The notes below the pieces were generated by a model. It had not been told where the DNA came from and did not search any database. It worked only from the letters and a program-made list of their open reading frames with translations. Positions 3,497 through 56,736 of a stretch of 64,000 nt of DNA are shown one piece after another (within the stretch, counting starts at the first letter, position 1; each line of letters begins with the position of its first letter). Source of the DNA: an uncultured Bacteroidales bacterium (GTDB lineage: Bacteria; Bacteroidota; Bacteroidia; Bacteroidales; VadinHA17); NCBI GenBank assembly GCA_963730615.1, contig CAVSSR010000002.1:259748-323747 (forward strand), given 5' to 3'. The position numbers and the translations under genes are program-made.

Positions 3497-3571
3497 TGGG
3501 ACGTGGCAGGCTCGAACTGCCGACCTCTTGCGTGTGAAGCAAGCGCTCTGAACCGACTGAGCTAACGTCCC
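3497..3571 (-). tRNA. tRNA-Val (anticodon CAC)
   Basis: Reverse complement reads GGGACGTTAGCTCAGTCGGTTCAGAGCGCTTGCTTCACACGCAAGAGGTCGGCAGTTCGAGCCTGCCACGTCCCA. 7-bp acceptor stem GGGACGT/ACGTCCC, D arm GCTC/GAGC, anticodon stem CTTGC/GCAAG with loop TTCACAC, T arm GGCAG-TTCGAGC-CTGCC. CCA is not encoded. Confidence 0.92.
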
Positions 3572-12137: not shown

Positions 12138-12158
12138 CATACAATGGCATGTCACTGC
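12131..12158. terminator. bidirectional intrinsic terminator
   Basis: Perfect 10-bp inverted repeat GCAGTGACAT / ATGTCACTGC with 8-nt loop, flanked by AAAAAA upstream and TTTTGG downstream. Lies between convergent genes ending at 12137 and 12165. Confidence 0.7.
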
Positions 12159-12164
12159 TTTTGG

Positions 12165-27879: not shown

Positions 27880-28910
27880 CCTTTATATCATCAGGTTGTC
27901 TTTCGAGTGCCTTCATGAAATTTTCAGGTTTTTCCCGTCGGGTAATAAGTTTTGCCAGCCAGTTGCGGTCGGCTTTGGCCAGGGTTAGTCCGGCCCTGTA
28001 CCATTGACGCTTATTTGCATTTACACTTCCTACGATCACATTATTCCTCAATACAGCAGCAGCAGCCATATCGGCCAGTACACCGGCTGCCAATTGCTCC
28101 TCCCTGTCCGACCCCTGTGAGACATAATGATCCCGCTTGACCCTATTTTCTTGAATACAATCTGCGATTACCGGTCCGACACCGGTACATTCAACTATGG
28201 CATCCGGTTCGAAATCCAGATCAGCAACACTTGCCGGAATGATAGATAGCACCAAGTTCCCGTACAAGGTCAGGTTTGGACCCTGATTCCATCCTGTCGA
28301 GTACATGTACTTCTTCAATCCCCCATATTTTCAGGCTCAGGGCAGCCAGAAGTCCTATCGGTCCTGCTCCTGTAACCAGAACAGTATGAGGTTCCCAGAA
28401 CGACCGGCGGCCAATCATTCCTATCTGTTCCAGAGCCTTGGTAACAACAGTGGTAGGTTCAAGAAGAACACCCAGAATACCAAGTGTAGGATCAACTTTT
28501 ACAGCATATTCAGGTTCTATTCTCCACCGCTCCGACATATATCCGTGTATCTCCTTGATACCACGTTCGGTATAAAGGCCGTTACGGCACATATCCCATT
28601 CACCTACTGCACAGTTCGGGCAGGGAACAGGATCGGGACGTCTGACGATGCCAACTACAAGATCGCCTTTTTTAAATCCGGTTGATGTACCCGGATCAAT
28701 CACGCGACCCAGTGATTCGTGACCCAGGATAAGATGCTTTTGCCCGGGAGGGGCCCAGCCATATTTCCCTTCCACAATTTCAACATCGGTACCGCATACT
28801 CCTACGGCAATGGCTTCAACAAGTATTGATCCATCACGCATATCAGGTTCCGGCATATCCATATATCTTGCGGTTCCGGCTTTTTTTGGTTCAACTGTAA
28901 TTGCTTTCAT
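27854..28910 (-). pseudogene. Zn-dependent MDR dehydrogenase resembling archaeal-type glucose 1-dehydrogenase, one frame break
   Basis: [12 protein letters not shown]...GVCGTDVEIVEGKYG...LILGHESLGRV...VLVTGAGPIGLLAA aligns by eye with Thermoplasma/Sulfolobus glucose dehydrogenase as I recall it. The C-terminal half lies in ORF 27854-28318. The start overlaps the upstream stop (ATGA at 28907-28910). Confidence 0.7.
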
Positions 28911-32090: not shown

Positions 32091-32995
32091 TTATTTTTTG
32101 TTCTGCTTCTGATTTATTTTATGCTGTTGCAGCTTCCTTTCCGGCCTTCTGCCCATAATAGGTGCAATAATGTAGCTGAGGATAAAAGACCACAGAGTCC
32201 AGATGACAACCATCGCCACCATATTTGGTTTTACATTCGGAATTGTAAGAACTCCTATCAGAACAGCAGCTATATTCCGTGTACCCATTCCCAGTGACAT
32301 GACAACTTTCTCACCGCGGTTAAGGCCGAAACCGGCATAAAAAGAGATCAGTGCCATTACAAAACAGAAAATTGTAAGTGAAAGCATTGCCATGCTGCCG
32401 GCAGTAGCCCACATCTGCTTGTAATAAAGCAATAAAGCAGAAGATAATTGTCAATAATGTAGACAAACCCGCCAGCTTCTTTACCGGATTGAAGATCTTA
32501 TCGGCCACATTGCTGGCAAATGTCTTGATCAAAGCGCCAATAAGCAAAGGTAACAGCACTGATAATAAAGAGCGGTTTCAGGAGCGACATTACGCTTAAT
32601 TCTATCCCCTTGACCAGGAGTGGTGCGAAAATCGGCATTAACAGGGATGTGCCGATCGCTGCCACCGGGATGAAGGCTCCGGCGAAGACAACGTCTCCAT
32701 TCGCTTTGGGGAGAAGCGGCGGGAGAAAGGGTGCACAGGGAGCCAGACTTCCGATGAACAATACTATTACGTACATATTATCCAGGGGAAGTAACAAGTG
32801 TAATCAGAAATGCTATAGCAGGGCCTACCACCCAGCCTAATCCAAAGATCAGACCCAAGGAACTTCGGATTTCCAACTATTTTGAACATCTTGCCCAGGT
32901 TCACCTGAAGCCCCATGCTAAAGAGGTTCGAAATGGTGAAGACCAGTACCAGTGGCTGGAATATTGACTGACAAAACTGTAATAATTTCGTTCAT
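32091..32995 (-). pseudogene. SBF-like (bile acid:Na+ symporter family) transporter; about 4 frame breaks
   Basis: ATG 32995 gives MNEIITVLS. Hydrophobic segments QSIFQPLVLVFTISNLFSMGLQVNLGKMFKIVGNPKF, LPPLLPKANGDVVFAGAFIPVAAIG and GLNRGEKVVMSLGMGTRNIAAVLIGV are spread over frames (ORFs 32498-32797, 32320-32559, 32091-32432). Confidence 0.55.
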
Positions 32996-32997
32996 AG

Positions 32998-34706
32998 TTA
33001 TATGTTTATAAAGTTAATACACTGCATAATAGAACGTGCCAGCATACTTCCGGAGATATTCACTGCCCTGAAGCCGTTCTGCAGCAGTATTCGTGTTGCA
33101 TAATATGACCGCTGTGCCGAGCGGCAGAATGATGCTATCTGCTTGTCCTTCGGCAGTTCAGCCAGGCGTGAGCGCAACTGGGGAAGAGGTATATTGACAG
33201 CACCCGGAACAGGATCAGCTGCCACTTCAGGCGGATTACGCACGTCTAAAAGAAAGCTGTCGCCCAGTGAGTCCCAATGAACAACCGGCATGTCGCCCCT
33301 GAGGATATTTGCAGCGATCATACCGGCAAAGTTGACCGGATCTTTTGCACTTCCGTAATGGCGGAGCATAGCAGAGTTCAGATTCTTCAAGATCATAAAT
33401 TGTACATCCCATCTGAATTGCCATGGCAAAAGAATCGATCCTCTTTGGTAACTCCGTCTTCGCCAAGAACCTGTGCACCAAGCACTTTTCCGTCTGACTT
33501 GCGGAAGATAACCTTTATAACAAGCATTTTTGCACCCGGGTAATATCCGGCATGTGAATTAGGGAAAAGGTATACTTTCTCGTAATCAGTATCACCAAGT
33601 TTTTTAAGAGTTTTCTCGCTGACACCTGTCTGTGCTATTGCAGCGTCGAACAGCTTGCATATTGATGTTCCCTGTGTTCCGCGGAACTTCGATTTACGTC
33701 CTGCTATCACATCGGCTGCAATACGTCCCTGTCTGTTTGCCGGTCCTGCCAGCGGTATCAGAGTCCACTCTCCTGTAACAAAATCCTTCACTTCAACTGC
33801 ATCACCAACTGCCAAGAATATCGGGATCGGATGTGACCATATGTTCATTTACCCTTATGCCTCCACGTTCTCCGATCTCTAATTCCGGCCATCTTTGCCA
33901 GTTCAAGTCTCGGGTTTTACTCCAATAGCCATAATGACAATGTCAGCCTTATAAACCTTCCCTTTTTCGGTAAGCACTTCCAGATCCACCATTTTCACCC
34001 TTACGGAATCCTGCCACGCCATCACCGGTTTTAACGGTTATTCCATGTTTCTTCAGATATCTCTTAACGACGCGTGCCATTTCCGGATCGAGCGGAGGCA
34101 TAACCTGGTCGAGTTTCTCAATCAATGTGACATTAAGGGCTCTTTCAACTAAGGTTTTCAGCCATTTCCAGGCCAATGAATCCTCCGCCTATGACCACTG
34201 CCTTCTTTGGTTTTGAAATCTTGTCAACACCTGTGAATGAATTTCCAACGGAATTGTCGGTATCCCTGTCAAGCCACTCTTTGATATTTTTTGAATCTGC
34301 AACTGTTCTTACTGAAAATATTCCCGGAAGATCGAGTCCGGGAAGGGGAGGACGAATAGGTGCTGCACCGGGAGAAAGTACCAGTTTGTCGTATTTTTCA
34401 GTTGTGACTTCACCGGTGAGATGATTTTTCAGCTTAACCGTCTTCTCCTTCGCTGAGATACCAACCACCTCACAATTTGTCCGGCAGTCGATGTTGAATA
34501 TCACCTTGAACATCTGTTCCGTGGCAACGAGAAGTTTTGATTCTTCGTCTATCGATCCCGCCTACATAGTACGGTAAACCGCAGTTTGCATAGGATACGA
34601 ATGGTCCGCGTTCCACCATCAGGATCTCGACTTTTTCATCAAGCCTGCGGAGTCGTGCAGCACATGATGCGCCACCTGCAACTCCACCAACGATAATTAC
34701 TTTCAT
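32998..34706 (-). pseudogene. CoA-disulfide reductase / NAD(P)H sulfur oxidoreductase with C-terminal rhodanese domain; at least 5 frame breaks
   Basis: MKVIIVGGVAGGASCAARLRRL and redox Cys in SYANCGLPYYVGG. Second dinucleotide fold KKAVVIGGGFIGLEMAENL. Rhodanese loop FCRSAQRSYYATRILLQNGF. Fragments 34470-34706, 34145-34513, 33949-34176, 33393-33848, 32998-33429. Confidence 0.8.
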
Positions 34707-34881
34707 AGTTTTTGCTTTTAATTTGTTCTTGCTTATTTGAAATGAAATTTAAGGCTAGTTTTAATGGGGGACAATACTTAACAATCAGTATTTATCTTAA
34801 CCAGCTCAGCCCCTCATCCGGTATATACCTGGTCAAATTGTTCTGTCCCGGCGTGCATCGCAATAAGGGAACGCATTACAT

Positions 34882-38227: not shown

Positions 38228-39571
38228 CTAAATGTTGAAAGCTTTTTTTATCTTCTCAACATAGTCCAGTTTTTCCCACGTAAAAAATTCAACCTTCTTG
38301 TGATATATTTTTTTACCATTGCCATTTACTGATACCGGTATACTTCCGGGAACCTCATAATAAACTTCAACGTTTTCAGAATAACTGTCACGGCCAAAAT
38401 GTCCGTAAGCAGCTGTTGGAAGGAAGATTGGATTCTTCAACCCGAACCGCTTAACTATATGATAAGGCCGCATTTCAAAAAGAGTTTTGATCTTTTCAGC
38501 TATCTCCCCGTCACTCAGACGATTGCCTTTTTTATCTTTGACTTTCGCTGTTCCATACGTATTTACAAATAAACCAACAGGTTCCGCAACACCAATGGCA
38601 TAGGCCACCTGGATAAGCGCCTGGTCGCAAACACCTGCTGCCACCATGTTTTTGGCGATATGCCTTGCTGCATAAGCTGCTGACCTGTCAACCTTTGAAG
38701 AATCTTTTCCGGAAAATGCTCCTCCTCCGTGCGCTCCGTGACCACCATATGTATCAACAATGATCTTCCGGCCGGTCAGCCCGGTGTCACCGTGAGGACC
38801 GCCTATAACAAATTTCCCGGTGGGGTTCACCAAAAGCCTGAAATCATTTGTAAAAAGTTTCTGTACCCTTGCAGGTAACAGTTTCTTTACGCGTGGTATG
38901 AGAATTTTGTTGATATCTTCCTTGATCGCATCCTGCATGGCTTTTTCTGCCGCCTTTTCAGAAGCCTGTGTTTTATTCTTCGGAAGGATAAATTCATCAT
39001 GCTGGGTGCTTATGACTATTGTTTCGATACGAAGCGGCTTATTATTGTCGTCATATTCAACCGTCACCTGCGATTTACTGTCGGGTCTCAGATATTTCAT
39101 CTTTTTCCCTTCGTGCCTTATTGCTGCCAGTTCCTGGAGCAACAGATGAGCCAGGTCAATCGTCAGGGGCATATAGTTATCCATTTCGCGACAGGCATAA
39201 CCAAACATCATTCCCTGGTCGCCCGCTCCCTGATCTTCAGGTTTCTCACGTACAACGCCCTGGCGGATATCGCCCGACTGTTCATGAATAGTAGAGATTA
39301 TACCACATGAATCACAATCAAAACGGTATTCTGCCTTTGTATAACCTGTTTTTCTGATCACCTGGCGGGCAATCTCCTGGTTATCGACCCAGCCATTGGT
39401 ACGTACCTCGCCGCCGCAGACAACCAGGCCTGTTGTCACAAAGGTCTCGCATCCCACTTTTGATTCCGGGTCCCACCGGAGGAATTCATCAAGCAGTGCG
39501 TCTGATATCTGATCGGCAATCTTATCGGGATGGCCTTCAGAAACTGATTCGGAAGTAAAATAGTATGGCAT
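38228..39571 (-). CDS. metK: S-adenosylmethionine synthase (long Bacteroidota-type)
   Basis: [63 protein letters not shown]. Intact 447 aa. Confidence 0.95.
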
Positions 39572-39600: not shown

Positions 39601-40790
39601 CTACTTCCCCATTCCCATATTCTTTATCCGCGCCTCTTCCCATCCGAAGAAACTGGAGGCTACCTGTATCCATTCCTTTTCAGAAACCGGCTCAAGGTGA
39701 AGCGCACCCGACGGGCATCCCAGACCACAGGAGCCGCAGCCCACACATTTGTCCCTGTTGTACACCGACATTCTCCCGTCATCGGTTTTCTTCCATTTAT
39801 GGGCAAAGAACTGGCAACGCCTGATGCACTCGCCGCAGTTGGTGCATTTGTCATAATCCTTTACAACACGGTAGTTCGATCGCTCTACAGACTTCGGTGA
39901 GCTTACCATTACGCCCACCCTGCAATATGGTGCAGCAACAGCCGCAGCAGTGACAGCCGCCGACGAACTGGGGCTCCTCGGCTCCCATGGTGAACCCATA
40001 GAAACCCTGAATCATCATGGTCCCCATGGCATCGAGCTCATCCCAGAGCTTTATGGCCTCTTCCCGGCTGATCACGTTTTCAGAAAGAGGAACCACCGGA
40101 GGCATACCTACGAAGCCGCAACGCTTGATGGGCATGTCGCAGCTATGGCCTTGAAAAGCAACTTTCTCCTTCTTGCATACACAATCTAATACAAGAAAAC
40201 GGTCGTGCCTCTGGAAGTGGGCATCAATATCATTGTGTGGTTCCCGCTTTAACCATTCGGGTTTAAGCGAGCCCCGCATCGGAATTGTGCCCTGCGGGCC
40301 CGGACGTGGTGCAAAGATTTTTTCGCCTCCGCCCTCAATCACATATTGTTCGAACACTTTTGCAAATTCAGTACTTTCAGGCTTAACATCCTGCAGGTAC
40401 GATTCATACCAGCCTACAAGAAAAGAGAAAAGCCGGTATTTTTTCACACCTTCTTCCTTCTTCTGGCCCGGTTTTGCCTCTATTTTTCCAAGTCCCTTTA
40501 CACCGGACTCAAGGGCAAGTAGTTTCATCTTTAACCATGCGGCGGGGTATCATTCCCTCGAGTAACACAGTTACTTTATCCAGGGGAAGACCAACCCGTT
40601 CAGCAATTTCGTCAGCAGTTTCGAGCTTACGGCTCATGGAGCTGGCAACCAAAGCCTCTTCAGGTGAGAACACCATCTTGATAAGCTTTATTTCCGATTT
40701 GGAAGGAGTTCTGGTGAAACCGGCAGGAAGTGCATCAAGCGCATCGGCAAGTTTTTCATAAACATCTTCGGATATGGTAATATTTTTCAT
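39601..40790 (-). pseudogene. Fe-S protein: wHTH-like N-terminus, CHCCGCC Cys run, C-terminal 2x[4Fe-4S] ferredoxin domain; two frame breaks
   Basis: ORFs 40509-40790, 39851-40528 and 39601-39999 concatenate. GGCHCCGCC. CTNCGECIRRC and CVGCGSCGLGCPSGA. Confidence 0.6.
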
Positions 40791-40810
40791 TGCATTCTGT
40801 TTTTAAAGAT

Positions 40811-41939
40811 TTATAACCGGTTACCAAGGTAAATTCCCAGCGACTGTGCAATTCTCATAAATTCGCTTTCAGTAGGCACAGTTCTCACTTTGTCAACAGC
40901 ATCTGTCAACGGCACAAACCTGATATCGGGTGGCATAAAAGATACCATCACCCCATTTTGTCCTGCTTTCAGCACCTGGATAGATCCGGCACCATAAGCC
41001 ATTCCCAGCTGATGGTCGGTTGCGGTGGGATTTCCGCCCCGGGCCCAGGCGCCAATTACAAGCGGATAGGTTTCCGCAGTAATCAGTTTCTGAAGCCTTG
41101 TTGCAACAGTGCCGGCCACCTGGCCTGCAGGTATAGATTCCGGGGATGATGCGGATGACTTATCATCCTGTTCAACCGGGTAATCAACTAACTTTGCCCC
41201 TTCGGCAACTACCACAAGCCCGTAAGGCCTCCGGACTGATATTTTATCTTTTAACCGCTTTGCCAGGTTCTTCAGATCGCAGGGAATCTCAGGCATCAGC
41301 ACTGCATCGGCACGGACGGCAATACCAGCCTGAAGTGCGATCCACCCGGCATGTTCACCCGGAACCTCAACAACAGCAATCTTGCTGGCTGATCTGGCCG
41401 CCTGGTAAGCCTTGTTCAGCATTTCGATGGTGACGCTGAGTGCACTGTTGAATCCAAACGATACAGCAGTATTGGCAATGTCGTTCTCTATCGAACGGGG
41501 AATACAAACCGTATGGAGCCCTTTGTTATGGAGCTTTTGCAGAATGCCAAGCCCCTGTCCGCTCACGATTGAAATCAGCGCATCGATGTCTTCTTCCTTT
41601 ATCCTTTTTAATATCTGATCGGAAAGATCTTTTTTGCCTCCCTTAACTGAGGAAGCATGAAACGGATCGACCTTTGGCGCCTGGCCAAGGATACCTCCGG
41701 TAGCAGGATCGAGATTTTCGATCAGCTCGGGGCTGAGGTTGATCATTCCGCCACCGGGGAAACGGTCCGGGAACAGACAGTCCCTCGAAGCCGTTGCGGA
41801 TGCCGACCATCTCCCATCCCAGTTTACCTCCGGCAATGGCTGCACCCATAACCACTGCATTTGTGCCGGGAACAAATCCCGATCCTACATTGATTGCGAC
41901 ACGCCTGTGCGTGCCTGCATGACCAAGTGATTTAATCAT
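40811..41939 (-). pseudogene. phosphofructokinase-fold protein, degenerate signatures (PFK-like 2), one frame break
   Basis: Roughly 55% identical by eye to PFK-like 1. VAINVGSGFVPGTNAVV, ISIVSGQGL, CIPRSIENDI, VVEVPGEHAGWIALQAG, ARGGNP. Break near 41790 (GFEGL | LFPDRFPGGG). Confidence 0.75.
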
Positions 41940-42023
41940 AACTTTTATTATTTAGGCATCAATATTCTTTCAATTTCTGTTTTATGCAGCTACTGTTATG
42001 GAGATCCAGGGATTCTCATTTTT

Positions 42024-42302
42024 TTAATTCCTTGCAACCATTTCAAGAGCATTATTCGGGCAAACCGCAATACACTCGCCACAGCCGGTGCATTTTACCG
42101 GATCAATCTCCGGTTTGCCGGGCAGCATTTCAGTGCTTTGACACATATTCTTGGGCAGACGTTCCGGCCCCTGGGTGATGGCATTTTCCGGGCAGGCTGT
42201 TATACAACCATAGCTGCTTTTGCAACTGTAGAATTTCAGCTGTGCCATGAAGCCGGGGCCAGTTTTAACGGCCCCGGCCGGCTTGTTATCTGAGTTGTTC
42301 AT
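42024..42302 (-). CDS. small 2x[4Fe-4S] ferredoxin
   Basis: 92 aa. CKSSYGCITACPENA and CTGCGECIAVCPNNA. Confidence 0.75.
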   Translation of the reverse strand: MNNSDNKPAGAVKTGPGFMAQLKFYSCKSSYGCITACPENAITQGPERLPKNMCQSTEMLPGKPEIDPVKCTGCGECIAVCPNNALEMVARN

Positions 42303-42340
42303 GATCTAGTCCTTTGGGTAAATCAAATTGTTTGTACCTT

Positions 42341-43298
42341 TTAAGCTTCTGCCTCCCGCCCAAACGCCTTATCAATCATAGCCTGAAATCGTTTAACAAC
42401 TTCATCCGAAGGTGTTTTGTAATCGTCGAGTTCGTAAACCACACCAAGCGATTCATACTTGCCAAGTCCAAAACGGTGATAGGGCAGCAGTTCATAATCA
42501 ATCACATTCTTGTGCGGTTTAATGAATTCCAGAACACCCAGGATATGTTCATCATCGCAATTAACTCCCGGAATAAGTGGTGTACGGGCAATAAAATCAA
42601 TGTTTGGAAAAGTTTCATAGGCTTTTTTGAAATTGGCCAGAATCCGCTCGTTACCAACTCCTGTCCACTTCTTATGCCTTTCCGAATTCATCAGCTTCAG
42701 GTCGTGAAGCATGGTATCAACATGAGGAAGTACTTTCTCGAGATTCGCCCAGGGTGCATTGCACGCGGTTTCTATTGCCGTATTAATGCCTCTGTTGTGG
42801 GCTTCCTGCAGCAAAGCTGCGGCAAAGTCGGGTTGCAGCATCACTTCGCCACCACTCATTGTCATAGCCTCCGCCGGAACTGCGATAGATGGAGGCGTCT
42901 TTTTCCACTTCTTCCATTACTTCGCCAACTGTCATTGTTTTGCCAAACATTTCGAGCGCACCGGTGGGGCAAAGCGCAACCATCTCCTCAGTAGTGCCTG
43001 CGGCCAGCTGCCAGTTCACTTTTACCTTTGCATCGTCTCCCTCCACAAAATAAAAACCACCTTCGGGGAAGGGTGCTTTCAGGCAAATGCTGCACTTTTT
43101 CCCTTCACATTTTTTTGGATCGTACGAAACTTCCGGCTTCAGCCTGATACTTTCAGGATTGCCGCACCATTTACAGCGAAGGGAACAACCTTTTATGAAA
43201 ACATTTGTGCGGATACCGGGACCATCGTGGCTGCAATACCGCTGGATATTCAGTACTCTGCCTGTAATATCCAATATATTATTTGTTTGATTTGTCAT
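42341..43298 (-). pseudogene. glycyl-radical-enzyme activating enzyme (radical SAM), one frame break
   Basis: CSHDGPGIRTNVFIKGCSLRCKWCGNPE (CxxxCxxC), ferredoxin-like insert CEGKKCSICL...LCPTGALE, then SSGGG|MTMSGGEVMLQPDF after removing one base near 42866. Probable start MTNQTNN at 43298. Confidence 0.85.
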
Positions 43299-43311
43299 GA
43301 TTCTTCCCTCC

Positions 43312-44469
43312 TTATTTTCCAACGTAAATACCAAGTGAATCCGCTACCTGAAAAAACATGCTTTCAGCGGGTACCGTTCTTACCTTGTTGATGGCCTCGG
43401 CAAGCGGAACGAACTTAATATCCGGAGGAACAAACGACACCATTACACCGTTTTTGCCGGCTTCAAGCGCCTGGATAGCTCCTGCACCGTAAGCCACACC
43501 CAGCTGGCGGTCGACTGCCGATGGTGCACCACCCCTTACCCAGGGGCCGATTACCATTGGAAAAGTTTCTTCTGCTATCCGCAGTTGCAGGCCTGTTGCC
43601 ACAGCCTGTGCAGCCTGTCCTGAACTGTGAATTACAAATTCACTGTTGGAATCGCTGGTTGCCAGTGGCGATAACGAAGCTTTAAGTGAGGATACGGGTT
43701 CTTCATTTTTAGGCTGATTGATAATTTTTGCGCCTTGGGCCACGACTACCAGACCCCAGGATTTTTTACCTGACATTTTATCTTTCAGGTGTGCTGCCAC
43801 ATTTTTCAGATCAACCGGAATCTCAGGAATCAGTACTGCATCTGCAGCAACTGCAATACCGGCCTGCAGGGCAATCCATCCGGCTTCCTCTCCCTGTACC
43901 TCGACCACTGCAATTTTATGGGCCGCCTTGGCTGCCAGACGCGCACGGTCGAGCATATCTATTGTAAAAGTAAGCGCAGTGTTAAACCCGAATGATACCG
44001 AAGTTGAAGCAATTTCATTTTCGATTGAGCGTGGGACACATACTGCATTGAGCCCTTTCCGGTGAAGCTGGTAAAGAATAGTAAGACCTTTTCCTCCAAC
44101 GATCGAAATAACTGCATCGATCTTTTCTGCCTTCAGTTTTTTAAGCAGTTCATCCGACATGTCCACCTCTTCCACCATTTCGTCCTTGTTGATGGTGCGG
44201 ACATTAAACGGATCGATCCGGGCCGACTGGCCAAGTACACTGCCTGTATTCGGATCTAAATTCAATACCCGGGGATTGATCGCAATCAATCCGCCATCGG
44301 GGTATTTTTCGGGATGAAGAATACCTTCAAATCCATCGAGAATGCCCACCAGCTCCCAGCCCAGTTTGCCGGCGGCAAGAGAGGCCCCTGCAACCACGGC
44401 ATTTATCCCGGGAATGTAACCGGCACCTACCATTATGGCAATGCGTTTACGTCCTGTATCTTTACTCAT
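43312..44469 (-). CDS. phosphofructokinase-fold protein, degenerate signatures (PFK-like 1)
   Basis: Intact 385 aa. Collinear with E. coli PfkA as recalled, but GGDAPG is GAGYIPG, GGDGS is GGKGL, GTIDND is RSIENE, VMGR is VQGE. RGG is retained (WVRGGAPS). Confidence 0.8.
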   Translation of the reverse strand: MSKDTGRKRIAIMVGAGYIPGINAVVAGASLAAGKLGWELVGILDGFEGILHPEKYPDGGLIAINPRVLNLDPNTGSVLGQSARIDPFNVRTINKDEMVEEVDMSDELLKKLKAEKIDAVISIVGGKGLTILYQLHRKGLNAVCVPRSIENEIASTSVSFGFNTALTFTIDMLDRARLAAKAAHKIAVVEVQGEEAGWIALQAGIAVAADAVLIPEIPVDLKNVAAHLKDKMSGKKSWGLVVVAQGAKIINQPKNEEPVSSLKASLSPLATSDSNSEFVIHSSGQAAQAVATGLQLRIAEETFPMVIGPWVRGGAPSAVDRQLGVAYGAGAIQALEAGKNGVMVSFVPPDIKFVPLAEAINKVRTVPAESMFFQVADSLGIYVGK

Positions 44470-44522
44470 AATTATTTACTCCTTTGGTTCTTATGTTTTT
44501 TCGTATGTTAATTAACATAAAT

Positions 44523-44547
44523 AAGGCATGGCAATCTGCCATGCCTT
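44523..44547 (-). terminator. strong hairpin between the GRE gene and PFK-like 1 (attenuator / partial terminator candidate)
   Basis: Perfect 11-bp stem AAGGCATGGCA / TGCCATGCCTT with 3-nt loop. On the minus strand it is followed by ATTTATGTT. Confidence 0.5.
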
Positions 44548-44572
44548 ACTTTACTGCTTCTTTATTGTAAAT

Positions 44573-47008
44573 TTATTCGCAGCGCTGCAGGGTCCGTTCG
44601 ATGATCTCATTCTGCACGCCCACATGCAGCTTTGTGAAGAAGGCGCTGAAACCAGCCACCCTGACCACGAGGTCGCGGTATTTTTCAGGATGTTTCTGTG
44701 CATCCCTGAGGATTTCGGTGTTCAGTACATTGAACTGAATGTGATAGCCACCGTTATCGAACAGCGTCTTGACCAGACGCAGCACATTATCCCTGCCTTT
44801 ACGGGTTTCGAGCTGATCAGGCGGAAGCTTCATGTTCATGTGCGTTGCGCAATATGCAACTGCATCAATACCTTTCGCTGCAGACATCACCAACGCAGTC
44901 GGTCCGTTGACATCGGTGCCCGGCATGGCCGAGATACTTCCGTCGGTGAGCGCCACTCCGGCCTTCTTGCCGTTCGGCAGTGCCCCGCACACCATACCAA
45001 AGGGGTTGTGGCCACTCTTGGTATAGGCATCGAGTGAGGTCTTGATGTCCTTGCTGATGTAGTTGCCACCGCCATCCACATTACTAAATGCTTGCAAGAT
45101 GGTGTTGTAAACCCGGCGGACGAACCTGTTCACTTCGGGGATGTCGTTGCCGTGCTTGGGTGCTTCAAAGCACATCTTCCCTACTTTTGCGTATTCTCCT
45201 TCGAAGTTGGCAGCCAGGGCTTTTTTCAGTTCGGCCATAGTCACTTTCTTGTCATCGTACACCAGTTTCTTCACTGCCATCAGCGAGTTGGCTGCATCCA
45301 CGCCGCCTATGGAGATCTGGGCAACCGTGTAGTAGTTGGCCCCGCCGTCCCAGGTCTCGGTACCGGTTTCGATGCATCCGCCGGTCAGGATGGAGCGCCA
45401 GGCGCAGGGGAGGAAATCCGCCTGCAGGATGTTTGAAATCCAGGCTGAATGGCGAAGAGTGTCCTCGCAGAATTGAAGCTGCTTCTCGAATGCGGCATAC
45501 AATTCTTCGAAGTTTTTGAAGTTCTCAGGATCACCGGTCTTGGGTCCGATCTGCTTTTTGGTGCGGGGATCGAAGCCATTGTTCATGGTCAACTCGATCA
45601 CCTTGCCCAGGTTAGGCTGGCCCTCCACCGGGTGACCGGTCTCATACGGGATGTAGCTTCCCACACAGGCTCCGACACAGGTGCGCCGGGCTTTCTCCAA
45701 TGGGAGATAACCGTTCCTTTCGGTGTAGCCCCAGAGGTTCAGGGCCCGCTTGAACATCACTTCGGCATTCACGAACTGAGGCATGCCCACACCGGTGCCA
45801 ATAACATCGAGGACCTTTTCAAGGAATTTGCCGCTCATCTGTTCCGTGTAGGCGCACGACAGCGGAGGTTGCGGCAGAGCGAGATAGGCTGCTGAATCCA
45901 GAATCACATAGTCCATTTCTGCAGTGGCATCTTCACCATTCTCGGTATAACCGCCAAGGGTGATGCTCTGTCCCAGATCGGCGGAGTTCTGCTTAGCGAT
46001 TCTCTCGCCATAGTAGTAGCCAATCTCATTCAACTTGATGGTGAGGTTCTCGAACATGAAGAGGGCGTCGTCATAAGTAACAAGCCCGGCTGCCTTGTCG
46101 GCCTGATAGAAAGGCTCCAGATTCTGACCCAGATAGGCTTCAGAGTACCCGCAGCCGATCTGCTCGAGTTCTGCCACGATGTGACAGAAGAAGTGACTCT
46201 GGATTGCTTCTCTCAGATTCCGGGCGGGATGCTCGGGAACCCATTCGCAGGTTTCGGCAATAGCGATCAGCTCTGCTTTCCGGGTTTCATTCTTCTCTTT
46301 AGCAGCCATCTCCCGGGCCAACTCGGCATAACGATGGGCAAACCGGATCGCTGCTCTCATCACGATGAGGGCTCCCTCATAGAAGTAAAACTTGGAAACG
46401 TTCGGCAAACGCATCTCGAGAGACATCTGCCGCTCCTCTACCTCCTTGATCATGCTGGCAAGACCCTCCCGGTAAACCCGTGGGTAGTTAAGATTGCCAC
46501 CGCCGGCCGGCCAGTCAGAGAACGATCCAAAAAGGCCGGCGTCGGTAGCACAGATTTCGGGTCGTATCCAAATCGCTTCTGAAAGATCTCATCGACCCTG
46601 GGTTTCATCGCACGTTTGCCCCAGTATTCGAGCGCCCACTGGTTGGCCTTCTTATCTTCCGGAGTCGGCGACTTTTCGACTGTCTTCTCTTCTATCATCC
46701 AATCCACCTGCCATTCGGGATAGGGGTACATGGCATTGGTCTTGCCTGCCATGGCACCGACAAAGAGGTTGTCGTCGATATACAGTTTCTTACGCTCCAG
46801 GACGGCTGCCAGGAATTTGGCACGTCTGAGTACCTGGTGTATCTCCAGCGGTTTCCTCATAGACATCATGCATGATCCTGACTCGCTCGAAGTCGAGTTC
46901 CGGCTCTGTGCTCCTGAGTTGTTCTTTCAGCCGGTCAATACGCTTCGTATCGGCTTTGACCTTTGCTGTTGTAGGATTTAATGTTTCTGTTTTCATTTTT
47001 TTCTCCAT
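44573..47008 (-). pseudogene. glycyl radical enzyme (PFL2 / dehydratase-lyase type), two frame breaks
   Basis: ORFs 46790-47008, 46450-46869 and 44573-46453 concatenate to about 810 aa. Glycyl radical motif VVRVAGFSAFF. Thiyl loop LTGGCIETG. GPTALVMSAAK and YHIQFNVLN blocks. Confidence 0.9.
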
Positions 47009-47076
47009 TTACACTTATTGTTTAACTGGTTCTTGATATTTCACATTTAATATTAACTATGGTATTATTTTCTTCT

Positions 47077-47619
47077 TTATAGTCTAAGCAATTCTGAAAA
47101 ACTTAGAGCTGTTTCAGCCTGTTTTTCAAGCAGTGCATTAAGCTCTTTTGCTGTTCTGATGCGCGTGGCAGCAATTTCGAGAATCCCTTTCCTGAAACTT
47201 TGTAGGGTGTACCTGAAACTGTCGTTATCCAATAGTTCGCACATGACAATATGATCAGTCGGATCATCGCATTCCTGTTTGCATTCATGGCAGAAACCGT
47301 AAAGAACGCTTATCCCGTTTACGACCTCCTGTGATGTCCATTGAATTTCACCGTATCCTCCAAATTCATTGTGCCATACATGACTCCATCTCCTTATATC
47401 GTGTCGCCAGCCTGAAACGGAAACCTGCCTGGTATCATCGAGAACGCCTGACCCCTGGGGTACAATTAATCCCGGTTCAGTCCCAAGGCAGGAGTTGTTG
47501 CTGCTTAATTCGGGCCAGTTGAATACCACCTCACGCTGGAATTCACCGTTTCTGGTAACCTTTGCTGACCAGCTCCCTCCAAAAAAATCACGGAATAATT
47601 TTGCTGTTAACTCAGCCAT
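47077..47619 (-). CDS. hypothetical protein, first gene of the GRE-containing transcription unit
   Basis: Intact 180-aa ORF, 68 nt upstream of the GRE start. No motif recognised. Cys-rich patch GFCHECKQEC. Confidence 0.45.
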   Translation of the reverse strand: MAELTAKLFRDFFGGSWSAKVTRNGEFQREVVFNWPELSSNNSCLGTEPGLIVPQGSGVLDDTRQVSVSGWRHDIRRWSHVWHNEFGGYGEIQWTSQEVVNGISVLYGFCHECKQECDDPTDHIVMCELLDNDSFRYTLQSFRKGILEIAATRIRTAKELNALLEKQAETALSFSELLRL

Positions 47620-47718
47620 AATTTTATTTTAAAATGAAGGGATTCAATAATTTGTTTTTTGAGTCTAAATAATATCGCCTCCGACAGATCAAAATTACGG
47701 GTGATTAAAACCGGCTGC

Positions 47719-47738
47719 AATACTGACGTGTCAGTATT
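47719..47738. promoter_or_regulatory. palindromic operator candidate
   Basis: AATACTGAC-GT-GTCAGTATT has perfect 9-bp arms. Located in the divergent intergenic region between 47619 and 47791, abutting the -7 box. Confidence 0.4.
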
Positions 47739-47743
47739 TTTTC

Positions 47744-47751
47744 TATTTTTG
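47744..47751 (+). promoter_or_regulatory. candidate -7 box TATTTTTG
   Basis: Matches TAnnTTTG, 40 nt upstream of ATG 47791. Part of the conserved GTATTTTTTnTAnTTTT module. Confidence 0.4.
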
Positions 47752-47790
47752 AAGACTAATATTGTATATCAGACTCATATTCAGCGCATA

Positions 47791-48549
47791 ATGCCAAATC
47801 CTTATAGCTATAGCATCTTTTTTGATTTTATTGAATCATATCTGCCATCAGGGTTTCTGAAAATAAATCCTGATGATCCTATTATGCTAAAACTCGAGGA
47901 GCTGACGGATGAGAATGACCAGTACTTTCAGGTTTTCGATCTGGGGCAGATGAAGTTTCTGTTTACCAGTAAAAATATCTTTCAAATGATCGGTGTTACA
48001 GCTGAAGAGATTAATCCCGGACATTATACACAGCTTATACATCCCGATGATGAAGAGAGGCTTGGGCAGGCCAGGTCGACGGGTTTACAAGATGGAGAAG
48101 GAGATATTCAAGGCACAAAAGGGCAGCGCATTGACATCATACAACCTTACGGATCCGCAATGCTGCCGGTAATTATAATAATCTGTTTGTTCAGGACTAT
48201 ATGTTTTATCAGTCCGATCCCGTACAAGGCAGTATTTCTGATACAGGTTATTACAAATATTGACTGGTATAAAATGAAGAAAGACCGTTTTCATCATTAT
48301 GTCGGAAATGATCTTTCGCTGTTTAGATTTCCTGATCAGAAATTGCTGGAAATTGGTCCTGATCTGTCATATCGTGAATTTGAGATCATCAGACTGATTG
48401 AGTCAGGTTTGAGCAGTAAAGAAATAGCTGACAAATTATTCCTGAGTGTACACACTGTAAATACCCATCGCTCCAATATTCTCGAGAAATCAGGTAAATC
48501 GCAGATCTCAGATCTTATTTATGAGTTCAAGGAGAAGGGATTGCTGTAG
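47791..48549 (+). pseudogene. PAS-like / LuxR-HTH regulator (paralogue B) with compensating internal frame breaks
   Basis: MPNPYSYSIFFDFIESYLPSGFLKINPDDP...HPDDEERLGQAR and C-terminal REFEIIRLIESGLSSKEIADKLFLSVHTVNTHRSNILEKSGK. Residues 48076-48225 read family-like (VYKMEKEIFKAQKGSALTSYNL, RIRNAAGNYNNLFVQDYMFYQS) only in the other two frames. The ORF stays open by chance. The track start 47659 is an upstream extension. Confidence 0.75.
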
Positions 48550-50620: not shown

Positions 50621-51819
50621 CTACCCGACGCGTCGTACGGCTTGAAGTGCCTCAGCCGGTTCGGGAAGCTTTGAAGTAGTACGTTTCTTCCATTCGGCTT
50701 CAAGCAATTCTCTCGCTGCCTCTTCAAGGATATCCGGTGCAGCCCATGCATGCACATCGAAGTCGTTCTTGATGTAACCATGACTTCAGCATGAAATCCT
50801 TGCCAATTTCGACCGATACCAGGTTCTGTGGTGACAGGTTGGGAACAAGGTCTATTGGCTTGATTCCTTCATAGGTATCTTCTACATCAAGATAGAAGGT
50901 TTGCCTGTCGAGGATGCCTGCTGCGGCATGTTTGTTTTCATTGCTCCAGCGTCCTACCCTGATCATGCCTTTCATAAATGCAACAGCAAGTTCACGGTGT
51001 TCATTATACATCACATCGGAGCAGGTAATTGCAGCAGGTATGTTTGCCACTTGCAGTGTCCAGTCGGGATATAGCGACAAGTCTTCAATAGCCTTGAATT
51101 TGCCGGTAGCTTCCTGAAGATGCTGGAACGGTTTGCTCTGGGTATAGCAGGCATCGATAATCCCTTTTTCAAGCGCAGTCTCCAGCGGACGGAAGGCAAG
51201 GTCATGTTTATGATCGCGCTGCAGCCATAAGTCTGATGGATTGTACATTGGTTCCAGCATCTTCGGATCGTTATACCAGTCATCGGCATAAGGGAATTCA
51301 ACGAGTTCAATATCTTTCATGGTCATTCCGTTCATCCGGAGCATCAGCTCAATACCCTGATGTTCCTGAATGCGCCACCAGTCGTTTTTAACCTGGTTCA
51401 TACTTCTTGAAATTCCGATTTTTTTGCCTTTCAGATCAGTCATCCTGTAGATATCATCTCTTGAGCGAACCATCATACAGCCGCCTTCTTTTGGAGCATG
51501 GGTCACTCCCAGAAGCCTTGTTCTGCGTATATCTGCATGAACATGAATTGGAGGAAACAAACCGCCAAATCGAATGAGGTTGTCCAGGTTGTGAATGTAG
51601 TGCGGGTACCAGTCGTTCTCGCGTTTGTAGCGGAAATAATCATATTGTACACCAAGTTTTTTGAATTCTTCCCTGTGTCCAGCCAAGTTCCTGGTCTACA
51701 TTGCTTGCCGAAATAAGCGGGCAATTGGTATAGTACACCTCTTTCCAGTTCAATGGAATGACATTCAATTTTGTGTTTTCAAAAGTTGTCACTTTAATTT
51801 TCTCATCACTGTTTGCCAT
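50621..51819 (-). pseudogene. NMT1/SsuA-fold protein resembling DszB (2'-hydroxybiphenyl-2-sulfinate desulfinase) family; two frame breaks
   Basis: ATG 51819. YYTNCPLISASN vs DszB YSNCPVPNAL (catalytic Cys region). LIRFGGLFPPIHVHADIRRTRLLGVTH vs YTRFGGEIPPLLSEGLRAPGRTRLLGITP. MMVRSRDDIYRMTDLKGKKIGISRS vs FFVRDDSPITAAADLAGRRIGVSAS. C-terminal DVHAWAAPDILEE vs LDQWAAPEFLNN. DszB is recalled from memory. Breaks near 51690 and 50783. Confidence 0.55.
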
Positions 51820-55185: not shown

Positions 55186-55220
55186 GGCTTCAGGCTTTAA
55201 GACTTCAGACTCTGGACTTC
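55186..55220. repeat. five heptamer repeats straddling the GH13 stop codon (contains 25-nt element copy 2)
   Basis: ggcttca ggcttta agacttc agactct ggacttc. The stop codon tta lies at 55197-55199, so the last units encode the C-terminal FEVQSLKS. Confidence 0.5.
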
Positions 55221-56736
55221 AAAAACATGATAGCCCCATGGTGGCAGGTGCAAAAAAAGGTGTTTAGAAAGAAGTTCATCCCCGTCACGGTCATAAAGGG
55301 CAGAGCTCATCAGGTCACTGAAGCGTACGGTTTTACCTGCCTGGTCGGCATAATGAAGGTTAACAAAGCATTGGCTGTCATGAGATGAGTAATTAACAGC
55401 AACCAGCGCCCGCTCTCCGCCTGTGCCTTTCCAGTCAAATGCCAGAAAAGAATCCCACGTATGATTTCCCTCCCAGGCCGGAATGCATTCAAGCAGATGC
55501 CAGTGGCCGTTGCGGAAGATGGGTTTCTTCAGTACGGTAAGTAACCCGAAATAGAACTTTTGCAGGACTTCGTTAACCGGTTCCAGCGGGCCACGTACCA
55601 GGTGTGGTGAGATGCGTTTCAGCCTTCCTTCAAACTGTCCCTGGTGAAAAAATCTTAACCCGGGAGAAAAGAAGGTTATGACTGCTGCCGCTTCATGATT
55701 CTTCTGCTCAAATGTTGCGGCTGCACGCGGTTCGTCATGATTCTCAAGGAACCTGGCAAGCTTATCCTGGTAATCAGGTGCTGCATAAAAATGCTCGCGT
55801 ACGGGTCTGGCATGGCCTTCACGCAGGCGGTCATAAAGCCGTTTGTCATAGGCATAATCAAATCCCTGCTGCTGCATGGTCCACTCCATATCCCAGTAAA
55901 CTTCAGCCATGAAGCAGAAGCCCGGGGCTTTCTCATGAACAGCTTTGGTTACCAGGGGCCAGAAAGGTCTGAGCCCTGCGGCCCCATGTCCTTTCAAAAA
56001 CATCAGGGAGGATAAGCATTGCCATATCGCATCTTACTCCGTCGCACTGTTCAGAGATCCTGAGAAGTTCATTGGTCATAGCCTCAGCGGTTGCCGGATT
56101 GCTGTAATCGAGCTGCAACGTGTCAGGCCATCCGGCAAAGAAAGGATCACGTCCATAGGCAAGGATGATGTCTCCTTTCAAACGTCTGACCCGGGTATAA
56201 TTCTGAGGAGATTTTTCAAGATCGCCCTCTGTCCCTGAAATAAACCAGTCAGGATGATCCTCAACCCACGGGTGATCCGGTCCCATGTGATTCGGAACGA
56301 AATCGAGCATTAGTTTCAGTCCCCGGTCTCTCATCCTGATGCGGAGACGTTCCAGCGCAGCATCTCCGCCCAGGTCAGGGTGCACGTTATAGCCGGTGAT
56401 GGCAAATCCCGAACCGGCGATATCATCCTCCTGCAGATCAGGCAGCGTCGATTCAAAATCGCGCCGGAACTCAGGGTTTTCACGTGAGACCTTCCTGCCG
56501 AGATCGCCTGTACACCATACACTCAGGAACCATATCCAGTCAAAGCCTGTCTCTGCCAGGCGGTCCAGTTCCTCGTCAGGAATATCATCAAGCGTAGCCC
56601 GGCGTCCAAGGTGCCGGGACAGATCAGTGAGCCATACCCTCGTGTTGATCTGGTAAAGCGACGGATAGTTTGGTTGTATCATATCGTTTCTTATATTGAA
56701 ATACAATATCTGCATTTTTTTCAGAGCAGATAACAT
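55197..56736 (-). pseudogene. GH13 alpha-amylase-family glycosidase, one frame break
   Basis: GH13 regions LDFVPNHMG, DGVRCDMAM, FMAEVYWD and FLENHDEPR. ORFs 55933-56736 and 55197-56003 overlap with a break near 55940-56000. Probable start MIQPNYPSLYQINTRVW at 56682. Confidence 0.8.

Follow-up and report, generated by a model that had tools for sequence, protein, structure and literature searches.

Accessory subunits of glycyl radical enzymes (GREs) are known only for HPAD, BSS and MASS, and are small HiPIP- or rubredoxin-like Fe-S proteins (2026 review, PMC13450708). The locus described here resembles these systems, including hpdB-hpdC-hpdA (4-hydroxyphenylacetate decarboxylase), in that a PFL-like GRE has its own radical-SAM activase, a further gene that is not a GRE lies between the two, and Fe-S accessory proteins are present. 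It differs from them in that the accessory protein is a ~385-aa protein of the phosphofructokinase (PFK) fold, whose sequence shows no obvious Cys-cluster motif and which co-evolves with the activase and not with the GRE, and in that the GRE is by sequence neither a decarboxylase nor an X-succinate synthase.

The closest sequence relatives of the GRE (~30% identity, 280-370 bits) are glycerol dehydratase, HypD, CutC, IslA/HpsG and YbiW/PflD, which share its PFL2-type architecture and an HpsH-like activase. Unlike these eliminases and isomerases, it has a C-V-G loop without CXE, Gly or Cys at the His/Asp acid positions, and extra conserved loops (ETGHPVEGQPN and DxYTKSxHN). As in PFL/TdcE, several conserved Cys lie in or close to the active site, neighbouring genes point to CoA metabolism and the context looks anoxic and fermentative, but instead of an adjacent Cys-Cys pair there is a C-x3-C and a Cys on another strand, and TIGR01255 (cut-off 994) gives a score of 81 bits. 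The annotated neighbour families, which are a subset of all families, include no FocA gene and none for formate handling. Among active enzymes, the group III 'mixed-substrate' PFKs (TIGR02483; ~38-39% identity) are closest to the PFK-like protein, with the same fold and an alignment that runs through to the C-terminus, but the canonical members keep GGDG(T/S), (K)TIDND, MGR and GHxQRGG, which the PFK-like family has lost.

The window, that is, the whole stretch of 64,000 nucleotides of an uncultured Bacteroidales bacterium that was analysed, contains the locus at positions 39601-47619. The seven co-directional minus-strand genes given in a preliminary description of this DNA are present, and their families agree with the Pfam and NCBIfam assignments: a PFL-like + Gly_radical GRE, two PF00365 PFK-family proteins, a radical-SAM GRE activase, a small ferredoxin and a protein with a C-terminal di-cluster ferredoxin domain. 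The locus and its surroundings comprise the following features:

33025-34667, minus strand: CoA-disulfide/persulfide reductase with rhodanese domain (CoADR-RHD), fragmented here; accompanies the GRE in 52 of 85 loci
38228-39571, minus strand: MetK, SAM synthetase, 447 aa, directly downstream of the locus; linkage in 15 loci
39601-40790, minus strand: Fe-S protein, ~394 aa, three domains; frameshifts at ~40520 and ~39900
40811-41939, minus strand: PFK-like protein B, ~375 aa, paired with the Fe-S protein; one frameshift at ~41770
42024-42302, minus strand: small 8-Cys ferredoxin, 92 aa, optional (14 of 85 loci)
42341-43334, minus strand: GRE activating enzyme, radical SAM, CSLRCKWC; one frameshift at ~42866
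43312-44469, minus strand: PFK-like protein A, 385 aa, intact, activase partner; PFK fold without kinase residues
44519-44551, minus strand: 15-bp stem-loop directly 3′ of the GRE stop codon, kept across phyla
44573-47008, minus strand: GRE, ~810 aa, with Cys loop TCVGAC*VGSY and glycyl motif RVAGFSAFF; read in three frames (frameshifts at ~46840 and ~46558)
47077-47619, minus strand: U180, 180-aa protein, first operon gene, without Pfam or NCBIfam match; Bacteroidota-specific, in 18 loci
47659-48549, plus strand: divergent PAS-LuxR regulator (PAS_3 + GerE); true start probably near 47790, from comparison with a 251-aa orthologue (L051)
47719-47738: 20-bp palindromic operator, AATACTGAC-GT-GTCAGTATT, which precedes the first gene of the operon by 100 nt
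50724-51801, minus strand: SsuA/NMT1-like protein; same operator-marked gene set in Bacteroidota

Spread and composition of the system

The locus had been regarded as an orphan, which proved wrong. More than 1200 GRE homologues were found, the best 120 of these at an identity of at least 79%, and GRE, PFK-like and activase genes follow one another in that order in at least 80 genomes. The carriers, three cultured isolates among them, belong to more than 10 phyla, including Bacteroidota, Chloroflexota, Acidobacteriota, Planctomycetota, Verrucomicrobiota, Proteobacteria, Gemmatimonadota and Actinomycetota. No description of such a system was found in the literature, and the 2026 GRE review mentions no PFK-like partner.

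The locus set consisted of 84 related loci and the window (85 in total), with 80 syntenic genome loci among those fetched. A PFK-like gene is present in 81 and an activase in 76 of the 85, always in the same order, and the PFK-like gene is syntenic with the GRE in every locus with downstream DNA. Judged from this gene content, the conserved core of the system is the GRE, the PFK-like protein and the activase. The PFK-like gene co-occurs regularly with this GRE clade in other genomes; the Fe-S protein is an optional module found in about a third of the loci (29/85, window included). The CHCCGCC run and wHTH-like N-terminus described for it are present; its domains are the wHTH-like one, with weak TrmB/IclR matches, a 10-Cys domain (CxC...C-x6-C...CxCCxCCC) that matches nothing in Pfam or the PDB, and a 2x[4Fe-4S] ferredoxin. 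Genes found next after the activase encode rhodaneses, the Fe-S protein or, in locus L091, an AhpD-like protein.

The PFK-like proteins and their coupling to the activase

In hpdBCA, hpdC lies between the GRE gene and the activase gene, and the PFK-like gene is placed likewise, is universal with the GRE and is highly conserved (median identity 65%). The PFK-like protein could on these grounds be a stoichiometric structural subunit of the GRE, like HPAD gamma or BSS beta/gamma, stabilising it or gating its active site rather than acting with the activase. This is unlikely in view of several observations. In 13 of 30 loci the PFK-like stop and the activase start share 4 nt, pointing to translational coupling, whereas the gap from the GRE to the PFK-like gene has a median of 110 nt and contains the conserved hairpin, in which 12/12 pairs show compensatory changes (65 loci). 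Identity matrices of PFK-like protein and activase correlate at r=0.78, against 0.19 for GRE and PFK-like protein, a low value that could partly be due to the narrow GRE identity range, and 0.18 for GRE and activase. The same PFK-like/activase pair also serves a very different GRE: in L087 the GRE is HpsG-like (NF048011, 966 bits) and only 29% identical to that of the own family, but the activase is 69% and the PFK-like protein ~48% identical to theirs. L007 has a GRE gene of 93% nucleotide identity with a PFK-like protein of 69% identity, a case in which the GRE gene alone is seen, from these identities, to have been exchanged between phyla. L091 carries PFK-like protein and activase with no GRE in the fetched 6 kb upstream or ~3.7 kb downstream. 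Finally, in a metagenome control the activase was directly downstream of 12 of the 13 degenerate PFK-like genes with downstream DNA, and among 67 canonical PFK genes there was not one with an activase or GRE nearby. Gene order and covariation show the PFK-like gene to be genetically welded to the activase, and not to the GRE. In the activase itself, the ferredoxin-like insert has 4 invariant Cys only.

The replacements of PFK signatures listed in the preliminary description are all present and recur, in alignment with E. coli PfkA, across 69 family members, in which D103 is lost, R171 is changed to E, A or K, R243 to F or Y and H249 to P. The statement that these are unlikely to be ordinary fructose-6-P kinases is thereby supported, the alignments showing a PFK fold without the Mg-ATP and F6P residues; an AlphaFold model (pLDDT 48.7) was too poor for use. 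To call the two proteins degenerate paralogues does not go far enough, since they represent distinct subtypes: A goes with the activase, to which it is coupled, and B with the Fe-S protein.

It is still less probable than a structural subunit that the PFK-like protein is a neo-functionalised kinase or phosphotransferase with another donor or acceptor, making or consuming the GRE substrate (e.g. a sugar phosphate, as for YbiW/PflD). In its own clade S125, E127, N128 and D129 are kept, new basic residues occur at positions 103 and 124, and conservation is high for the loop R-S-I-E-N-D and for R72 and R252, so that a ligand-binding or even catalytic role may exist. GREs that act on sugar phosphates are known (PMC13450708), and the locus neighbourhoods include PPK2, G6PD, GH63 and a gene of amylase type. 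However, the Mg-binding D103 is missing along with R171, R243 and H249, the motifs are gone too in relatives at 40-48% identity, where the former active-site residues drift, every score against NCBIfam PFK models is below cut-off, and the cassette also accompanies the HpsG-like GRE, the substrate of whose characterised homologue, DHPS, is unphosphorylated.

Gene integrity and the active site of the GRE

Three broken genes had been counted; there are four (GRE, activase, PFK-like B and Fe-S protein), with six single-base frameshifts between them. Such damage might suggest a decaying pseudogene cluster, but this is very improbable: (i) every break is a single-base indel relative to a 96%-identical relative, whose own indels sit elsewhere, (ii) the shifted-frame pieces match intact homologues at 73-98% identity, (iii) splits also hit unrelated genes elsewhere in the window and (iv) the closest relatives among the fetched loci bear 'MFD...' isolate names, which we take to mean long-read assemblies. 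The frameshifts are most likely assembly errors of the long-read type.

The glycyl radical motif VVRVAGFSAFF was correctly identified and matches the GRE fingerprint (PMC13450708). The thiyl loop was not: in phmmer alignments with glycerol dehydratase (1r8w) and HypD (6vxc), the catalytic Cys433/Cys434 correspond to GAC*VGS, and the proposed GGCIETG, here rejected, corresponds to DNCIGKG/DDCIEKG, ~90 residues past the catalytic Cys. The true loop of the family is RRTCxGAC*VGSY, in which the residue at Cys+2, aligned with Glu435/436 of the two enzymes, is Gly; the CXE motif, kept by every GRE eliminase and isomerase (PMC13450708), is absent. Where a general acid would normally stand, the family has Gly or an invariant Cys. 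The likeness to dehydratase/lyase GREs is thus not supported, having been read from the mis-assigned loop.

Within the family, any two GREs are 59-100% identical, and 35% of the alignment columns do not vary. Scores against NCBIfam equivalogs (~400, cut-offs of at least 1000) are all far below cut-off, and the best PDB relatives reach ~370 bits, compared with ~1400 inside the family, supporting the earlier view that the system, on sequence grounds, is uncharacterised and maps onto no characterised pathway. A 1,2-eliminase of the diol, choline or hydroxyproline type, with PFK-like and Fe-S genes as unrelated passengers, would fit the best PDB/NCBIfam similarities of the GRE (glycerol dehydratase, HypD, HpsG, CutC), but this reading can practically be dismissed given the missing CXE, the Gly or Cys at the general-acid positions, the equivalog scores and the invariable synteny of the PFK-like gene.

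Linked operons and proposed mechanism

The divergent PAS-LuxR gene and palindrome reported at the 5′ end are present. Across 18 Bacteroidota loci there are 23 sites with at most 3 mismatches to the operator, where shuffles give 0.27; most precede the start of a U180, SsuA-like or cc95 operon by ~100 nt, two CoADR-RHD-associated sites lie 130 and 274 nt upstream of operon starts, and an operator-like site is found at 34773-34792, by the window's CoADR-RHD gene, whose homologues are often immediate neighbours in other loci. The palindrome, as a predicted operator, links the GRE operon to SsuA-like and CoA-persulfide-reductase operons in Bacteroidota. The SsuA/NMT1-like protein has no obvious N-terminal signal peptide on sequence inspection alone. 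The absence of an alcohol dehydrogenase holds inside the locus but not for the window, where there is a Zn-ADH fragment at 28221-28910 that has counterparts in 8 related loci. The proximity of sulfur and fermentation genes may be due to common regulation rather than a common pathway.

In the account preferred here, the radical-SAM activase and a non-catalytic PFK-like partner, as adaptor or regulator, would install the glycyl radical using SAM, a step that the often adjacent MetK would suit. The radical would move on to Cys443 (L002 numbering), which would take hydrogen from a small, probably anionic substrate, as alignment to other GREs suggests. Since the eliminase Glu base and His/Asp acid are missing and an invariant extra Cys, C281, aligns with the acid position, classical 1,2-elimination is not expected, and the chemistry would more likely proceed via a second thiol, as acyl or persulfide carrier or redox pair. 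Providing or withdrawing electrons or sulfur would be the task of the optional pair of PFK-like B and Fe-S protein, of the small ferredoxin and of the CoA-persulfide reductase/rhodanese, whose genes are tightly linked. The GRE operon is, in Bacteroidota, one of several with a common operator beside a divergent PAS-LuxR gene; the PAS-LuxR proteins would bind it in response to a signal, presumably oxygen or redox state.

This account, with its core of GRE, PFK-like protein and activase and the PFK-like protein acting with the activase, is on balance the probable one. On this account the system is a large, widespread, horizontally mobile and uncharacterised family of oxygen-sensitive GREs, and a PFK look-alike travelling with the activase is a kind of partner not reported for GREs.

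Gene layout and frameshifts in the window

Seven genes, all in one direction, occupy 39601-47619 on the minus strand of the window. They encode a glycyl radical enzyme (GRE), its activase, two proteins of the phosphofructokinase family (PFK-like A, the activase-coupled subtype, and PFK-like B, the subtype paired with an Fe-S protein) and accessory proteins.

First gene, minus strand: U180, 180 aa, no family match
Second gene, minus strand: GRE (PFL-like/Gly_radical)
44519-44551, minus strand: stem-loop directly 3' of the GRE stop codon, as in most loci
Third gene, minus strand: PFK-like A (PF00365), 385 aa, intact
42341-43334, minus strand, fourth gene: radical-SAM GRE activase
42024-42302, minus strand, fifth gene: ferredoxin, 92 aa, 8 Cys
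Sixth gene, minus strand: PFK-like B, the second PF00365 protein
Seventh gene, minus strand: Fe-S protein, ~394 aa; weak wHTH signal, Cys-rich middle part and, at the C-terminus, a 2x[4Fe-4S] domain
38228-39571: MetK, directly after the seven-gene set

The preliminary description had counted three broken genes; genes are indeed broken, but there are four of them, interrupted by six frameshifts: in the GRE (near 46840 and 46558), the activase (near 42866), PFK-like B (near 41770) and the Fe-S protein (near 40520 and 39900). Against a locus of 96% identity (L008) all six are single-base indels; L008 has indels of its own at other positions. Many unrelated genes of the window are also split, for example at 55197-56736 (amylase-like), 29024-31687 (GH63-like) and 33025-34667 (CoADR-RHD, a CoA-disulfide/persulfide reductase with a rhodanese domain), which is consistent with assembly-wide indel errors, and the closest relatives bear 'MFD...' isolate names, which we take to denote long-read assemblies. 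For these reasons the frameshifts are read as assembly errors and not as decay.

In the small ferredoxin, the first Cys motif is atypical, being C-x5-C-x3-CP plus a distant Cys and not CxxCxxCxxxCP. A tRNA gene at 3497-3571 is the sole Rfam match in the window; with the window and three loci scanned, neither a riboswitch nor any other Rfam family came up close to the operon.

A widespread glycyl radical enzyme clade without the CXE motif

The GRE matches PF02901 (7e-119) and PF01228 (6.5e-28), and its segment RVAGFSAFFTKLHVGVQNEIIER matches the fingerprint RVxG[FWY]x6-8[FL]x4Qx2[IV]x2R of the PFL-like GREs of IPR004184; the catalytic Cys in the Cys loop and the cognate CX3CX2C radical-SAM activase that go with this entry are likewise present. 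The nearest solved structures are those of glycerol dehydratase (GDH) and HypD, at ~370 bits. In phmmer alignments to these two (1r8w and 6vxc), the Cys of GAC*VGS, invariant in 50 members, falls on GDH C433 and HypD C434. The motif GGCIETG, earlier taken for the thiyl loop, instead aligns to DNCIGKG/DDCIEKG, some 90 residues past the catalytic Cys, and is a motif that the GRE shares with GDH and HypD. At the true loop (ACVGS) the position of the GDH/HypD Glu435/436 is Gly (Cys+2), and the CXE motif of eliminases and isomerases is absent from the GRE in the same alignments. Further active-site positions are replaced throughout the clade: GDH H164/HypD H160 by Gly (WPxGGGN), GDH S282/HypD D278 by an invariant Cys (EQxGC*GYSE) and GDH Y339/HypD F340 by Gly.

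Placement in a characterised class fails on several counts. None of the NCBIfam equivalogs (CutC, HypD, HpsG/HpfG, PFL2-3 subfamily) comes near its cut-off (345-409 bits vs 678-1100); these scores were obtained from a 626-aa fragment, which is ~77% of the protein, so that truncation alone does not explain the gap. As regards the formate lyases (PFL/TdcE), the loop reads TCxGACVGS (C-x3-C), without two adjacent Cys, and TIGR01255 reaches 80.7 against a cut-off of 994. For the X-succinate synthases and HPAD, NF033715 gives 331 vs 1150, and no family of small HiPIP-like Fe-S ORFs recurs beside the GRE in 80 genome loci. According to a 2026 review, CXE is retained in all 1,2-eliminases and isomerases, and two loop Cys occur in PFL and TdcE only (PMC13450708); the GRE therefore stands outside those classes as the review defines them. 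Its chemistry may well use a second thiol. As to the substrate, the leading guess, though a tentative one, is an organosulfur or sulfane-sulfur-linked reaction, in view of the sulfur-rich surroundings and of an activase that resembles HpsH; a fermentative 2-oxoacid/CoA reaction ranks second.

The locus had been called an orphan, a label that does not survive database searches: the GRE fragment retrieves more than 1200 homologues, the best 120 of them at 79-97% identity. When each species was represented by a single genome, 133 relatives were obtained, from which 80 loci were kept, spanning Bacteroidota, Chloroflexota, Acidobacteriota, Planctomycetota, Verrucomicrobiota, Alpha-, Gamma- and Deltaproteobacteria, Gemmatimonadota, Actinomycetota, Calditrichia and Ignavibacteria. 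Three cultured isolates are among them, Flavihumibacter profundi, Eudoraea adriatica and Lutimonas halocynthiae, all described as aerobes. Across its more than 10 phyla the clade has pairwise identities of 59-100% (median 74%) with 35% of columns invariant, and soil and sediment metagenomes are very rich in it. These GREs without CXE form a new, discrete and widely transferred clade.

A Chloroflexia MAG (L007) carries a GRE (10064-12420) with 93% nucleotide identity to the Bacteroidales GRE of the window, while its PFK-like protein is 69% identical to the window's at the protein level. This suggests a recent cross-phylum swap of the GRE gene alone, although mis-binning may also account for it. 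A Balneolaceae locus (L009) was entered alongside L007 in the GRE comparison.

Gene order was followed in 85 loci (84 related loci and the window). Wherever downstream DNA is available, GRE, PFK-like gene and activase succeed one another in that order, the PFK-like gene being found in 81 of the 85 and the activase in 76, with the remaining loci truncated. The expectation that the PFK-like genes and the protein with the CHCCGCC run would accompany this GRE was thus borne out for the former, but the Fe-S protein occurs in only 29 of the 85 loci, either right after the activase or in pairs with PFK-like B (at most two pairs per locus). The Fe-S module is optional.

PFK-like proteins and their coupling to the activase

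Both PFK-like proteins keep the PFK fold (PF00365 E-values of 2.6e-59 and 9.8e-48), and the reading of both as degenerate phosphofructokinases is upheld by an alignment of 59 A-type and 10 B-type sequences to E. coli PfkA, in which the GGDGS, TIDND and MGR signatures are lost and kinase residues are replaced. In E. coli numbering, G11, N128 and G170 are retained in all or nearly all members, R252 in 68 and R72 in 58 of the 69, and D129 in most (Glu in 10 of 69). D103 is absent from all 69, where it is G, K, R or Q; D127 is Glu in 63 of 69, and D12 becomes Y or F, R171 E, A or K, R243 F or Y, and H249 P. The residue set expected of ATP- or PPi-dependent 6-phosphofructokinases (D103, D127, R171, R243, H249) is therefore not found, and the best NCBIfam model, TIGR02483, scores 231 vs 430. 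Judged by its sequences, this is a PFK-fold family without its kinase residues. Among 1.8 billion cluster representatives searched, the family proved to be graded: relatives at 40-48% identity likewise lack GGDGS, TIDND and MGR and vary at the former active-site positions, and the nearest proteins with intact motifs, from ~39% identity, are group III 'mixed' PFKs. An AlphaFold2 model of PFK-like A, built on an alignment of 86-97% identical homologues, had a mean pLDDT of 48.7 and was left out of the fold search.

Genetically, the PFK-like protein and the activase behave as a unit. The PFK-like stop and activase start overlap by 4 nt in 13 of 30 loci, and the identity matrices of the two proteins correlate with r = 0.78, as against 0.19 for GRE and PFK-like and 0.18 for GRE and activase. 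Between GRE and PFK-like gene lies a gap (median 110 nt) with a stem-loop conserved across phyla, with z < -2 in 85% of 76 loci and compensatory changes at 12 of 12 pairs (alignment A3, 65 loci). It has the form GGTACGGCGTGGC-loop-GTCACGCCGTACC, or GTAAGGCATGGCA...TGCCATGCCTTAC in Bacteroidota. Its role could be that of an attenuator or mRNA stabiliser, by which the GRE would be made in far greater abundance than PFK-like protein and activase, or that of a protein-binding site.

The same pair serves a different GRE in L087 (4405-11102), where an HpsG-like GRE is followed by an SDR of the NAD-dependent epimerase/dehydratase family, a PFK-like protein (P0364, 48% identical), an activase and an SBF transporter. 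The GRE of L087 has a GCCE loop, scores 966 bits with NF048011 (cut-off 1000) and is 29% identical to the window's GRE; the activase is 69% identical to those of the GRE clade. L087 represents a second GRE clade with the same activation cassette. The SBF transporters of L087 and the window are non-orthologous (20% identity), so that no substrate can be deduced from them. Two more distant PFK-like proteins adjoin a PFL-like gene or an activase. In a further locus, L091 (5998-10708), genes for a PAS/GAF histidine kinase and a LuxR-type response regulator precede those for a PFK-like protein, an activase, a protein of the AhpD/CMD type and an Asp-Al_Ex transporter; the fetched flanks, 6 kb upstream and ~3.7 kb downstream, hold no GRE.

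As a control, 84 metagenome and related loci were divided into 17 with PFK homologues lacking all three canonical motifs and 67 with homologues retaining them. The activase is directly downstream in 12 of the 13 motif-less cases with downstream DNA, vs no activase or GRE nearby in any of the 67. GRE-activase-associated PFK-like proteins are proposed as a new family, recognised by loss of GGDG(S/T), TIDND and MGR together with an activase immediately downstream, both of which are seen in the window (the activase in 76 of 85 loci). The family is tightly and specifically tied to one GRE-activase clade, across at least two GRE clades. Its members would act as non-catalytic adaptors or regulators of activation. 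Apparent fusions of PFK-like protein with Fe-S protein or activase (L078, L017, L028) are frameshift read-through artefacts.

The activase carries CSLRCKWC and both of its halves match TIGR02494. Only four Cys are invariant in its ferredoxin-like insert (C64, C70, C73 and C111 in the numbering of locus L002; 30 loci), enough for one auxiliary cluster; related activases such as CutD have two.

In the Fe-S protein, alignment of 37 intact homologues defines a middle domain with ten conserved Cys (8 invariant, 2 in at least 90%) in the pattern CxC, C-x6-C, CxCCxCCC, besides classical ferredoxin motifs. Its AlphaFold2 model (pLDDT 70.6) matched PDB entries in Foldseek only through the ferredoxin and wHTH-like parts; the 10-Cys domain had neither a PDB match in that search nor a Pfam family, and kinship with FTR or with the CCG domains of HdrB was considered as an idea only.

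Neighbourhood, regulation and significance

Neighbours, counted over the 85 loci and usually in the same orientation, comprise CoADR-RHD (52, often immediately adjacent), an SsuA/NMT1-like protein with no obvious signal peptide (45), an SBF-family transporter (35), SulP (31), rhodaneses (27), a ~900-aa GH63-like protein (27) and MetK (15). More variable are a nitroreductase-ferredoxin fusion, enoyl-CoA hydratase, Zn-ADH, 2-oxoacid:ferredoxin oxidoreductase, acetoacetate decarboxylase with an SDR, molybdopterin oxidoreductase, PPK2, G6PD and glutamate dehydrogenase. Redox or sulfur needs of the enzyme may be what the thiol/persulfide reductases and Fe-S proteins serve, and the system probably works in intermittently anoxic habitats. 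Downstream in the window are a Zn-ADH (28221-28910), the ~900-aa GH63/MGH1-like protein (29024-31687) and a fragment of an SBF transporter (32091-32432); the same three genes are met again near the GRE in other phyla, so that the region resembles an anoxia/fermentation island.

The palindrome noted in the preliminary description, at 47719-47738, proved to be a conserved 20-bp element of Bacteroidota (consensus AATACyGAnnnnTCrGTATT), with 23 sites in 18 loci vs 0.27 expected. Most sites lie ~100 nt upstream of the U180-GRE operon, of the SsuA-like gene or of a gene for a 95-aa coiled-coil protein, each such operator adjoining a divergent PAS-LuxR gene (the genes being paralogues); two, at 130 and 274 nt, are associated with CoADR-RHD, and a weaker copy is found upstream of the window's CoADR block (34773-34792). 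From these predicted sites, a shared operator is present in Bacteroidota, and the operons carrying it are likely to be co-regulated; the PAS domain would point to an oxygen or redox signal. No convincing sigma-54 promoter was seen upstream of the GRE in those loci that encode a sigma-54 activator.

It is possible, though on balance doubtful, that PFK-like protein and activase make up a new two-component GRE activation module in at least two unrelated GRE clades, with PFK-like B and the wHTH/10-Cys/ferredoxin protein as a redox counterpart (quenching, repair or re-reduction), that the whole lets soil and sediment bacteria not known as strict anaerobes run glycyl-radical chemistry under fluctuating oxygen, and that the GRE is an eighth functional class, without CXE and with a second active-site thiol and a link to CoA-persulfide or sulfane sulfur.

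In the current view, a GRE system comprises the enzyme, a single activase and, in rare cases, small Fe-S subunits. The 2026 review lists accessory subunits for HPAD, BSS and MASS only and does not mention 'phosphofructokinase' (PMC13450708). Full-text literature searches returned no account of the GRE/PFK-like/activase system, which combines an active site new at the level of class with a new type of partner. A pseudo-kinase-like partner of the activase, if real, would be a new component in the installation or control of the glycyl radical, and might aid in vitro GRE activation, the main experimental bottleneck of the field (PMC13450708). Automated pipelines name the GRE 'formate C-acetyltransferase' and the PFK-like protein '6-phosphofructokinase', and both names mislead metabolic reconstructions. 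Because it does without the catalytic motif of all eliminases and isomerases, the GRE clade probably carries out radical chemistry of a new kind, with a bearing on carbon or sulfur turnover in intermittently anoxic soils.
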